Positions 1 through 38,106 of a stretch of 38,106 bases of DNA are shown here, piece by piece; position 1 is the first letter of the stretch; each line of letters starts with the position of its first letter. Made by a program: the position numbers and the translations under genes. Source of the stretch: a bacterium. GTDB lineage: Bacteria; Hydrothermota; 32-111. The stretch spans positions 1 to 38,106 of the forward strand of contig JBFXGO010000023.1 of assembly GCA_050239825.1 (NCBI GenBank). Direction: 5' to 3'. The notes below the pieces were generated by a model. That model was not told where the DNA came from and searched no databases. It saw nothing but the letters and a program-made list of their open reading frames with translations.

Positions 1-29
1 TTGTGAATGTCTATTCCGCCGTACAGCAT
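1..29 (-). CDS. 5' end of an IS110-family DEDD transposase/recombinase (runs off the window start)
   Basis: Reverse complement of 1-29 reads ATG CTG TAC GGC GGA ATA GAC ATT CAC AA = MLYGGIDIH(K/N), resembling the IS110 N-terminal GID motif. AGGAGG Shine-Dalgarno at 40-35. Only 9 codons are visible and the ORF track does not list it. Confidence 0.8.
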
Positions 30-716: not shown

Positions 717-1847
717 CTAATCGCTTGCTCTTCTCTGATATGCCGGCTTATCCAAATCATTTTCAGGAACCGTAATTCTCTTCACGCTTACAGCGGCAAG
801 AATCTCTTCGTTTTTCTTATCCTCTTTTTTGTTCTGTGAGCCGAACAGTTCAAGGACATCCGCTTTCTGCTGTGTCTGGACTGCCTGTTTATCCCTTGAA
901 ATTCCTGTCGCCACAATTGTTATTCTCAGTTCGTCTTCAAAAGCGTCATCAAATGCGGCGCCCCAATTTATGTCTGTGTTGCCTCCCGCTCTCTTTCTTA
1001 TTATCTCCATAGCATCTTCTATATCCCCATAAGCCATATTGGAAGGCCCCGTGAGAGTTACAAGCATGGCTGACGCTCCCTCTATGGAAGAGTCCTCAAG
1101 TATAGGGCAGTCAAGAGCTATCTGAGCCGCGCTCGCTCCCTTGTCTTCTCCTTTTGCCGAACCTACTCCTATAACAGCGTCGCCTCTGCATGTCATGACC
1201 GCCTTCACATCGGCAAAATCTCTGTTTACAAATCCGGGCCTGATGATTATATCGGAAATTCCCTTTGCCGCCTGATAAAGTACGGTGTCGGCCGCTTCAA
1301 AAAGTTTGTTTAACGGAGTGGTTCTGTCGGAAATGTTCTTCAGTTTTTCATTTGGAATAACGAGCATTGTATCAACAGCCTCTTTCAAAGAGAGAATGCC
1401 GCCGGATGCGCTGTTTATTCTTTTGTTTCCTTCAAAATTAAATGGCTTTGTCACAATTGCAATTGTGAGTATTCCAAGCTCCTTTGCTATTTCAGCGACT
1501 ATCGGAGATGCCCCTGTCCCTGTTGCTCCGCCCATTCCCGCTGTTATGAAAAGCATATCAGCGCCCTCTATCGCCTCCCGTATTTCATCTCTTGATTCTT
1601 CAGCTGATTTCTTTCCAACATCCGGATTTCCGCCTCCTCCGAGGCCTCTTGAGATGTTCTTTCCAATCTGAATCTTCACGGATGCCTCTGAACGGCTCAA
1701 AATCTGCTGGTCTGTGTTGATGCTTATGAAGTCAACTCCGGTAAAACCGTATGAAATCATGCGGTTTATCGCATTTCCGCCCGCACCGCCCACTCCGACG
1801 ATTTTTATCTTCGCCGGCTGGATTGTTTCTTGAACTGGTATAAACAT
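717..1847 (-). CDS. ftsZ: Cell division GTPase FtsZ
   Basis: IKIVGVGGAGGNA, INTD, tubulin-signature variant GGATGTG, NxDFADVK loop, C-terminal core DLDKPAYQRR. Confidence 0.98.
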   Translation of the reverse strand: MFIPVQETIQPAKIKIVGVGGAGGNAINRMISYGFTGVDFISINTDQQILSRSEASVKIQIGKNISRGLGGGGNPDVGKKSAEESRDEIREAIEGADMLFITAGMGGATGTGASPIVAEIAKELGILTIAIVTKPFNFEGNKRINSASGGILSLKEAVDTMLVIPNEKLKNISDRTTPLNKLFEAADTVLYQAAKGISDIIIRPGFVNRDFADVKAVMTCRGDAVIGVGSAKGEDKGASAAQIALDCPILEDSSIEGASAMLVTLTGPSNMAYGDIEDAMEIIRKRAGGNTDINWGAAFDDAFEDELRITIVATGISRDKQAVQTQQKADVLELFGSQNKKEDKKNEEILAAVSVKRITVPENDLDKPAYQRRASD

Positions 1848-37359: not shown

Positions 37360-38009
37360 ATAAAACAGCTTGGATCATTTTATGCCTATTAGTGGCAAAT
37401 ATTTTGCTTGCAGACAGATTTATAAACATAGATTATATTTATGATGGTGTATCTGGAGATCAGAGAGTGAATTCTCCCAAATGTGTTGACGTTAATAATA
37501 ATGGAATAGTTGATTTAGTTTTAAGTTACTCTGATTTAGATTCATCATCAATCAGATTTTATGAATTTGATGGAGATTCTTTTGTGATGATGTATCAGTA
37601 TAAGGATACTGGAATATTAGCATTAAATGGTATAGGCGATTATGACTCTGACGGATTATACGAGATGTTAATATTTTTTACATCTCACCTAGCTATAGCC
37701 ACATTAGAACAACCCGATTCATTTTCATATCCTACAGGGATTACATGGATGTCAGATACAATATGGCAGTGCTCAAATTGCCTTGGTTCAAGCAATAAAT
37801 TTAGGAATGATTCAATAGATATAATATATGGAAATGGTAATCCATTAATTAGTACTCCTTCGATACCAAAAGGGTGGTATTACATGACTTGTACAGGTGA
37901 CGATTATTATGAACTACTCAACACTTATGTTCCAGACAGTGTAGGTCCGAGAGCTATGGATGTGGGAGATATTGACAATGACGGTGCTTCTTTGAAAGAG
38001 TGTCAATAG
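37360..38009 (+). pseudogene. FG-GAP/VCBS repeat protein, disrupted by the IS right end and lacking a start codon
   Basis: Repeats DVNNNGIVDLV, GDYDSDGLYEM and GDIDNDGA. The last codons (SLKECQ*) come from the IS end. The in-frame signal peptide KTAWIILCLLVANILLA (from 37362) is preceded by CAT rather than ATG. Confidence 0.72.
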
Positions 38010-38106
38010 GATAATCGATAATTCTCCTTTTTTCAATTAAAGAACTTAATTACTTGCAAAAGACCCGATAATGATATAAAATTAATTATGCTTCTTTAGA
38101 TGGCCT
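37985..38106 (-). mobile_element. Right end and 3' non-coding region of an IS110-family (IS1111-type) element
   Basis: Minus strand ends TTGACA-CTCTTTCA-AAG-AAGCA. The 12-bp IR matches 89-100 and the core AAGCA matches 106-110. It truncates the FG-GAP ORF. Confidence 0.8.
38061..38106 (-). ncRNA. Candidate donor-binding loop of a bridge RNA / seekRNA (partial; the 5' part is outside the window)
   Basis: Minus strand AGGCC-ATCT-AAAGAAGC-ATAA(TTAATT)TTAT-A-TCATTAT-CG-GGTCT. Closing stem AGGCC/GGTCT and an inner hairpin. AAAGAAGCA is identical to the element right end and TCATTAT is complementary to the left-end ATAATGA. Confidence 0.6.

Follow-up and report, generated by a model that had tools for sequence, protein, structure and literature searches.

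A putative bridge RNA with a donor-recognising module encoded 3' of the transposase gene in an IS1111-type insertion sequence of the IS110 family

Does the minus strand at the end of a bacterial contig specify part of the guide RNA of a mobile element, and if so, which of its segments recognise which DNA? The question arises from a 38,106-nt stretch of DNA (the whole contig C41 of the genome termed here G000, positions 1-38106, hereafter "the window"), both ends of which, on the minus strand, break off within copies of one multi-copy insertion sequence. The initial annotation had interpreted the segment 38061-38106 as the donor-binding loop of an IS110-family bridge RNA, with two guides enclosed by a short closing stem. 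We conclude, with a probability of about 85%, that the minus strand of this segment specifies the donor-recognising module of a bridge RNA (seekRNA) encoded 3' of the transposase gene (tnp) in an IS1111-type element of the IS110 family; the RNA is only partly contained in the window. Comparison of related sequences reveals the boundaries of the element, its core, the helices of the predicted RNA and three guides that covary with the DNA segments they match; production of the RNA, its binding by the transposase and a circular intermediate are features that we only infer.

The sequence common to all copies begins at 37980, and from this position the right end of the window recurs without a mismatch (100% identity) at four other contig ends of G000 (C9, C28, C13, and C3) and with 97% identity at a fifth (C23), with one additional internal match of 80% identity (C13:42801-42880). 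The left end (1-111) is found again at the end of C64. As the multi-copy element recurs at other contig ends, both ends of the window are assembly breaks inside it. On the minus strand the left end comprises a 12-nt repeat, a Shine-Dalgarno (SD)-like box, and an ATG codon (29-27) that starts the protein sequence MLYGGIDIH..., while the right end is non-coding sequence that closes with an inverted copy of the left 12-nt repeat. A tblastn search of G000 with the transposase did not find the gene, thus the interior of the element is unassembled there. A search of G000 and 60 relatives yielded matches in G000 and in four of the relatives, and a complete 1.3-kb copy was identified in a genome of the same genus (G002, locus L015:304-1627). 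It comprises a left end of 81 nt, an open reading frame (ORF) of 360 amino acids (385-1467), and a right-end non-coding region (NCR) of 160 nt, and exhibits 96% identity to the window across the 127 nt in common. In the sequencing run X1, from which the window may derive, the element interior is represented by two Logan contigs with a depth of ~170, which differ from L015 at 50 and 25 positions.

Of the transposase gene, the window contains no more than 9 codons within the initial 29 nt of the coding sequence (1-29, minus strand; full gene in L015:385-1467), and the domain tests were run on the same-genus copy. The L015 protein has the N-terminal DEDD/RuvC-like and C-terminal Transposase_20 domains of the IS110 family, with matches to PF01548 (69.2 bits, cutoff 29), PF02371 (75.7 bits, cutoff 21.3), and the NCBIfam model NF033542, "IS110 family RNA-guided transposase" (216.2 bits, cutoff 140). 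Its closest relatives of solved structure are IS621 and ISCro4, detected in the C-terminal domain only (E-values 1.8e-11 and 3.4e-9, respectively). A search for related loci with the transposase alone returned only the same-genus record itself. The longer NCR of L015 is located 3' of tnp (160 nt past the stop codon vs 81 nt ahead of the start), subterminal repeats of 10-19 bp are present in all 14 homologues for which both ends are available, and the transposase contains the sequence GLAPSIHSSG, which by eye corresponds to the IS1111 C-terminal motif GL-P----S(T)G. According to the accessible text of two reports (PMC11187229, PMC11208160), the marks of the IS1111 group are subterminal inverted repeats (about 7-17 bp), a long NCR downstream of tnp, and this motif. 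By its layout, subterminal repeats, and motif, the element is classified here as an IS1111-type member of the IS110 family. The initial annotation had called the recombinase possibly uncharacterised, which is true only in the sense of an unnamed subfamily, as the class itself has been described (PMC11208160, PMC11187229).

To delimit the element, we compared 15 right-end and 8 left-end junctions from G000, G001 (another relative), and G002. All 15 right ends have the form ...GACACTCTTTCA-AAG-AAGCA, followed by a flank similar to CCGTCCCC (variants CCGTCATT, CCGTCAGT, CCGTTTCC, CCGCTCCC, and CCGATGTC), and all five close left ends have the form nnnnC-AAGCA-TATAA-TGAAAGAGTGTC. Loose ends in run X1 and in three other runs provided extra left flanks, all with C before AAGCA. 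In G001, the orthologue of an FG-GAP-like gene that carries the element in G000 is uninterrupted (GACAATGACGGGGCTTGTGATG; GACAAT-GACGGGGCTTG-TGATGTG, DIDNDGACDVMIV). The right end of the window and the left end of C64 are the two sides of one insertion in G000, with TGCTT (AAGCA) on each. Since AAGCA is present on both sides of the element and once in the empty site, it is a core common to the element and its target, as the initial annotation had anticipated in proposing a core that contains AAGCA. Such site-specific insertion, with a fixed short core and no variable target duplication, is characteristic of the IS110 family.

On the minus strand of the window, the right end accordingly consists of the conserved target flank CCGTC of the second insertion, in the FG-GAP-like gene (37980-37984; consensus of 15 flank copies CCGTCCCC), the right copy of the core (37985-37989), the tip AAG (37990-37992), which has the core on one side and the repeat on the other, and the right subterminal inverted repeat GACACTCTTTCA (37993-38004), overlapped by a -35-like TTGACA (38006-38001). 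The element proper thus ends at 37990, adjoining the core. At the left end, the 5' untranslated region (30-88, with the SD-like AAGGAGG at 41-35; 90-92% identity to L015 over about 110-125 nt) is followed outwards by the left subterminal repeat TGAAAGAGTGTC (89-100), the inverted counterpart of 37993-38004, by the tip TATAA (101-105), which together with A100 forms a -10-like TATAAT and was compared in the 8 left-end copies, and by the left copy of the core (106-110). Both 12-bp repeats are internal to the core copies, at a distance of 5 nt at the left end and 3 nt at the right end. Beyond the core, 111-126 constitutes the left half of an occupied target motif, AAAATGTCAAGATGTC on the minus strand and with tandem TTGACA boxes on the plus strand; short matches to 106-130 are found in C57, C54, C18, and C21. 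If the ends were joined, TTGACA (38006-38001) would precede TATAAT (105-100) with a spacing of 16 nt, from which we infer a junction promoter at a circle junction, an inference that also follows the description of the family in the available part of PMC13604230.

The string AAGCACCGTC occurs 19 times in G000, in 6 element right ends, 12 unoccupied sites, and 1 unrelated location. The 12 unoccupied C-AAGCA-CCGTC sites (e.g. AAAATGTCAAGATGTC-AAGCA-CCGTCCCC, the intact form of the motif disrupted at the left end of the window) contain AAGCA once each. Its opposite strand consists of GGGGACGGTGC and then a tandem 8-mer, often with TTGACA. The 12 unoccupied copies indicate that the element targets a repeated genomic motif, a behaviour known for the IS110 family, as stated in the accessible text of PMC12288879.

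Within the right-end NCR, all strings on which the initial annotation relied are located where it had placed them. The plus strand reads tgcttcttt both at 38089-38097 and at 37985-37993, hence the minus-strand sequence AAAGAAGCA (38097-38089) repeats the right-end tip, beginning with the final base of the subterminal repeat and including the whole core. That annotation had regarded 37993-37985 as the terminus of the element; the identity holds, but the segment comprises the core (37985-37989) in addition to the end of the element at 37990. In 5000 dinucleotide-preserving shuffles of the NCR interior (38010-38106), a same-sense match of at least 9 nt to the 14-nt right-end tip was obtained in 84. 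A complementary match of at least 7 nt to the 16-nt left-end tip, as formed by the second putative guide UCAUUAU, was obtained in 1072, and the 9-mer match and the 7-mer complement jointly in 17. Thus the 9-mer alone is modestly unlikely to arise by chance, and the 7-mer is not.

A further test is whether the candidate guide changes together with the end of the element. In the alignment of RNA regions described below, a hairpin, termed here P3 (AUGGC-GUUAG-GCCAU in L015, 1493-1507), is located immediately 5' of a conserved A(A/U)AG... segment in every sequence. Compensatory changes are found at 4/4 counted pairs of P3 (16 sequences; L015 is off by one alignment column), and in a 65%-identical copy P3 is likewise preserved by compensatory changes (AUGCC/GGCAU). 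In the window, AGGCCAU (38106-38100) corresponds to the last bases of the P3 loop and the 3' strand GCCAU, the 5' strand AUGGC being located beyond the window end. For the comparison, P3 served as the anchor of the RNA segment and the end of the repeat as that of the DNA, with one representative for each distinct tip (10 classes among the 14 elements with both ends). The mean agreement between guide and right-end tip was 7.8/9 on the diagonal and 5.96 off the diagonal, a difference reached in 3/100,000 permutations; at the variable columns guide and tip agree in 10/10, 10/10, 10/10, and 8/10 classes. The homologue guides AUAGGUGAC, AUAGCAGG, and AUAGAAG, for instance, each match their own tip. 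As the AAAGAAGCA segment changes with the right-end tip across 10 classes, we regard it as the left-donor guide (38097-38087, AAAGAAGCA(UA)), of the kind expected from the IS621 model in the available text of PMC11208160. The covariation between guides and element ends in homologues, which the initial annotation had proposed as a check, is therefore found for this guide and the right tip, but not for UCAUUAU and the left tip (see below), and the assignment of the region to the donor part of an IS110-family RNA is upheld by the tip-tracking guide.

The homologues for these comparisons were obtained by searching 272 genomes of the phylum with the protein; 29 had a match with E<=1e-30, and 30 loci were fetched. 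In 14 elements both ends were definable, and in 2 others the right end alone. We excluded 13 loci, namely L055 and L072, which are duplicates of the L054 type, and 11 others (L053, L056, L058, L061, L063, L064, L066, and L068-L071) that are truncated or lack convincing repeats. The frameshifted L044 (genome G006), devoid of a normal right end, was used in the RNA alignment only, and the copies of G001, which are truncated remnants, were excluded from the covariation analysis. In the MAFFT alignment of 16 RNA regions (columns 221-300 poorly aligned), RNAalifold predicted a consensus of 19 pairs in 4 helices, of which 18 pairs exhibit compensatory changes. The consensus structure is paired in 88.5% of cells vs 65.0% in shuffles and at most 48.3% in slid registers, and its covariation score is 0.731 vs 0.288, with 0/500 shuffles as high. 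The full-length fold of L015:1405-1627 has an energy of -60.8 kcal/mol (z -3.12). A promoter scan of L015 revealed no plus-strand promoter upstream of the RNA, and the sole terminator-like match in L015 falls within the target loop.

The initial annotation had also predicted a target-binding loop just beyond the window, and such a loop is found in the 3' end of the transposase gene. The first module of the RNA (L015:1407-1479) has an outer stem formed by GGUCGUUU/AAACGACC and CCCU/AGGG, the right-target guide GACGGUGCU (1424-1432), complementary to AGCA-CCGTC of the core and right flank at 9/9 positions, an inner hairpin, and the left-target guide UACAAGUA (1457-1464), which matches the left flank and core and is directly followed by the transposase stop codon UAG (1465-1467). 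The loop therefore overlaps the last ~60 nt and the stop codon of the gene, and the helices enclosing its two guides are among those that covary. Base 38106 of the window corresponds to L015:1501, therefore the target loop ends ~22 nt beyond the window. The longest complementary run between the right-target guide and the right flank averages 7.53 for the element's own flank and 3.42 for those of other elements (15 elements), and the respective values for the left-target guide and left flank are 7.64 and 4.16 (14 elements); permutation of the pairs yielded 0/10,000 values as high in either case. Right-target guides of individual homologues pair with their own flanks at 9/9 positions in L048 (GUCAAAUCU with AGATTTGAC), at 9/9 with one G-U in L045 (GGUAGGUCU with AGACCTGCC), and at 8/9 in L049 (GUCAGGCCU with AGACCTGAC). 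In metagenomes, an exact search with a G000-specific stretch found no match, and a second pattern identified three contigs with near-identical copies of the element, all flanked by CCGTCCC and sharing the same right-target guide; in two of them the left-target guide is a variant, UCCAAGUA. In L015 the top-strand complement comes first, which agrees with the order of the target matches in IS1111 seekRNAs, in which, according to the available text of PMC11187229, the top-strand complement is 5' of the bottom-strand complement.

Taken in the 5' to 3' direction of L015, the RNA would thus comprise the target-binding loop, the hairpin P3, and the single-stranded left-donor guide AAAGAAGCA. By analogy to IS621, the bottom strand of AAGCA and of the right-end tip would be the pairing partner of this guide. 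A complex of recombinase and RNA would then bring the joined ends of the element together with a target of the form ...C-AAGCA-CCGTCCCC, and strand exchange within AAGCA would leave one copy of AAGCA on each side of the inserted element.

How the other end of the element is recognised depends on the interpretation of the segment UCAUUAUCG(G) (38074-38065, minus strand), which may be either the right-donor guide proposed in the initial annotation (38074-38068) or the 3' side of an 8-bp helix that is predicted to form with the upstream CGAUAAUG (38072-38065). In the full two-guide model, AAAGAAGCA reads the right-end tip and core while UCAUUAU reads the left-end ATAATGA, one base past the core, on opposite strands of the joined ends, as in the donor-binding loop of IS621. 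The plus strand is ataatga at 38068-38074 and tcattat at 98-104, hence UCAUUAU is indeed complementary to the top strand of the element at the left-end ATAATGA, and with a single copy of AAGCA the junction of the two ends would be AAAG-AAGCA-T-ATAATGA, in which both segments abut the core exactly. Complements of 6-8 nt to the element's own left tip are also present 0-20 nt past the left guide in L054 (UAUAUUAU), L060 (AUGAGUA), and L059, and the run of 8 in L060 (AUGAGUA vs TACTCAT) exceeds all cross-comparisons of its row, which are <=5. However, the 7-nt complement arises in 1072/5000 shuffles, the cross-homologue matrix for a signal 3' of the left guide exhibits none (diagonal 5.86 vs 5.37), and UCAUUAU is absent from homologues at 54% identity that have the same TATAATGA tip. 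Moreover, in the full-length fold of L015, both in the minimum free energy (MFE) and in the centroid structure, the corresponding segment CAUUAUCG pairs with the upstream CGAUAAUG. The stem supposed to close such a loop, AGGCC (38106-38102) with GGUCU (38065-38061), can be drawn with 5 bp including one G-U and is formed in the fold of the window sequence alone (-12.6 kcal/mol, z +1.41; 189/200 shuffles as stable), but it is paired in 35.6% of cells, a value reached in 228/500 shuffles, no downstream complement to AGGGC exists in the 65%-identical copy, and AGGCCAU is the 3' half of the covarying P3, whose 5' half lies beyond the window. We therefore rejected the stem, and consider the two-guide donor loop as a whole unlikely. 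A donor module with a single guide, in which UCAUUAUCG is the 3' strand of an outer helix (with CGAUAAUG) around P3 and the left-donor guide, and the left end is read via the 12-bp repeat and the protein, appears to us a tenable alternative with somewhat less than an even chance of being correct. The outer helix is predicted in the MFE and centroid folds, an outer helix likewise encloses P3 and the guide in the folds of L065, L067, L062, and L054, family members hardly differ in the TATAAT of the left-end tip, and no right-donor signal was found on either side of P3, the search 5' of P3 for complementary or same-sense matches giving values reached in 1724 and 9643 of 20,000 permutations. On the other hand, RNAalifold on the MAFFT alignment did not recover the outer helix, the register of which varies by homologue, such helices are easily drawn in AT-rich sequence, and the legend of Extended Data Fig. 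10 of Durrant et al., in the accessible text (PMC11208160), refers to coloured donor-complementary loops in IS1111 examples. It is rather improbable, in our estimate, that the clade as a whole represents a variant architecture, with the target loop in the last transposase codons and a single-guide donor module, the other end being read by the long subterminal repeat and either the protein or a helix mimicking the left-end duplex; since the target loop lies within the last codons, retargeting would then alter the C-terminal tail of the protein.

Two further explanations dispense with a guide RNA in this segment. The internal AAAGAAGCA might act as DNA, i.e. as a second right-end recombination site comparable to the B/B' boxes of ISPpu9, permitting modular or truncated forms. 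An internal duplicate of the end sequence would likewise covary with the real end, and duplicated end boxes and alternative circles are reported for ISPpu9 in the available text of PMC12288879, yet all 15 right junctions carry the full repeat and tip and none ends at the internal site, the internal copy is devoid of a subterminal repeat, and its position directly 3' of a covarying hairpin is fixed in 16/16 aligned sequences, which makes this explanation very improbable. That the repeats arose by chance in AT-rich non-coding DNA and the region is a mere 3' untranslated region is a possibility to which we give hardly any weight: chance accounts for the 7-mer, and shuffles fold as stably as the window sequence alone, but the 9-mer occurs in just 84/5000 shuffles, guide and tip correspond across 10 classes, and the helices are conserved with compensatory changes. 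Several observations nevertheless weigh against the interpretation of 38061-38106 as the donor module of a bridge RNA. Of the 30 loci fetched, the analysis covered only the 16 whose ends could be defined. Because the homologues are related, the permutation counts overstate independence, and the statistic for the target guides is inflated by L050/L052 and L054/L057/L059. The guide GUCAGGUAU of L046 matches its flank AGACCTAAC at 7/9 positions only, and the right flank of L047, which was outside the alignment and the permutation count, mismatches its own guide. The target loop and P3 are read from L015, the interior of the element in G000 being unassembled. A scan of L015 and L016 against Rfam 15 at E<=1 yielded two matches, neither of them relevant, as both are on the other strand and either fall outside the region of the bridge RNA or have no relation to it, and no RNA run contains the stretch. 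Finally, a right-donor guide, sought in homologues on both sides of P3, was not demonstrated; of the two donor guides of the initial annotation, AAAGAAGCA thus stands while UCAUUAU remains within chance.

With the bridge RNA donor module as the preferred interpretation, the element can be compared with characterised systems. The IS1111 elements ISEc11, ISPa11, and ISKpn4, as presented in the accessible text of Siddiquee et al. 2024 (PMC11187229) and Durrant et al. 2024 (PMC11208160), likewise have a DEDD transposase with the GL-P----SG motif. The group shares with the present element the subterminal inverted repeats, the long NCR downstream of tnp, a top-strand-complementary match located 5' of the bottom-strand-complementary one with an overlap at the insertion point, and a specific repeated target with the core flanking both sides of the element. 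The present transposase is longer (360 amino acids vs 330-350 given for IS1111 in the available part of PMC11187229), the region of donor-target identity comprises 5 bp (AAGCA), and the target loop overlaps the stop codon and the last ~20 codons of tnp instead of being wholly in the NCR, on which the accessible text of the IS1111 papers makes no statement either way. Unlike the IS1111 examples, the host belongs to an uncultured lineage and the element is known from its sequence alone.

The bridge RNA of IS621 (Durrant 2024; Hiraizumi 2024, PMC11208158) also consists of a target and a donor module. Its left guide is identical to the top strand through the core, as is the case here, and its C-terminal domain is detectably related (8wt6_A, E-value 1.8e-11, residues 189-329), whereas the N-terminal domain of the present transposase is too diverged for a sequence match to the IS621 PDB entry. 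In IS621, however, the RNA is encoded in the left end, upstream of tnp, and the subterminal repeats are only 2-3 bp long, compared with an RNA 3' of tnp and repeats of 12 bp here. The core of IS621 is the dinucleotide CT. Relative to IS621, the two target-loop guides of the present element come in the opposite order, and a right-donor guide is not demonstrated. The element further resembles ISPpu9, which targets repetitive extragenic palindromic (REP) sequences and bacterial interspersed mosaic elements (BIME; available text of PMC12288879), in its insertion into a short genomic motif of many copies, in a short direct repeat common to element and target (AG in ISPpu9), and in the presence of a solitary decayed copy of the RNA-encoding part elsewhere in the genome (here C13:42801-42880). 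In contrast to the palindromic REP targets of ISPpu9, the motif here consists of GGGGACGGTGC followed by a tandem 8-mer with -35-like boxes, and a junction promoter is predicted here, whereas none is formed by ISPpu9 circles according to the accessible text of the same paper.

Analysis of the surroundings of the element and its targets reveals a number of additional features. The variable distal NCR (38005-38064, minus strand), which is partly different between G000 and G002, contains an SD-like AAGGAG (38029-38024); an SD-like GGAG(G) is kept in the distal NCR of most homologues (window 38024-38029), and in four right-end NCRs (L050, L052, L062, and L065) it is followed by a start-stop mini-ORF, ATG-TAA. 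By eye, a short outer helix between the segment immediately after helix P1 and the segment immediately after the left guide can be drawn in homologues (ACUC/GAGU, GCUC/GAGC, GUC/GAC), which is absent from the element of the window. The ~30-nt target motif contains the 8-mers TTGACATC TTGACATT, or two copies each of TTGTAAAT, TTGACTTC, or TTGTATTT, and is located at 106-126 of the window and in contigs C7, C9, C10, C17, C18, C21, C30, C54, C56, C57, C63, and C67 of G000, with several unoccupied copies located within 100-190 nt of a contig end. Next to the copies in C56 and C57 begins an ORF that starts with MRRAR..YHHVMNRG and by eye has the look of a REP-associated tyrosine transposase (RAYT). 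In the window itself (150-662), a degenerate start, MSRARIKCESSYH, is located downstream of the occupied motif and is followed by an ORF (261-659) with an HUH-like sequence, NHLHGII; no Pfam family was detected for it at E<=0.01, and it may be a decayed Y1/RAYT-like gene. The minus strand of 720-1847 encodes FtsZ (Tubulin and FtsZ_C domains), and the run of minus-strand ORFs downstream of it (about 1.9-16.9 kb) may constitute a cell-division/cell-wall cluster. At the other end, the FG-GAP-like gene (window 37392-38009 and the end of C64; FG-GAP_3 at 24.5 bits, which is under the 26.9 cutoff) is interrupted by the element copy at a fortuitous C-AAGCA-CCGTC inside its DxDxDGxxD motif, while G001 and G002 have intact orthologues. 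In the right flank of L024 (G002), a 22-nt unit, AAGCA-CCGTCCCCATAAGCTTC, is present twice in tandem beside the element, the second AAGCA being intact and similar to an empty site.

We also found several decayed copies. The internal match C13:42801-42880 (L007, about 1501-1612, minus strand) is a solitary copy of the donor-module NCR, with about 79% identity over 113 nt, a broken P3, an end of the form ...CCGCTCCGTCCCC, and no transposase nearby. In L028 and L034 of G001, the left end and the first ~25 transposase codons are followed by unrelated sequence common to both (GACTTGTCAA...), and these truncated remnants were possibly cut by another element. A 65-68% identical copy in G006 (L016/L044, contig C8) has a frameshifted transposase and a right end replaced by ...TGTCACACTGTC-AAGCA-CCGTCCCC, which resembles the unoccupied target motif rather than the repeat and tip.

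The element is a new example of the described IS1111-type RNA-guided insertion sequences rather than a new system, and the current picture of RNA-guided recombination is unchanged by it. What it adds is a natural bridge-recombinase system of an uncultured lineage that is clearly bounded, its ends being known exactly along with the 5-bp core, an orthologous empty site, and 12 unoccupied targets, together with relatives at 30-65% transposase identity whose guides have visibly retargeted. Such a set is useful for learning the guide rules of IS1111-type elements, which are less well understood than those of IS621, and concrete testable questions are posed by a target loop that extends into the coding sequence and by the lack of a demonstrable right-donor guide.

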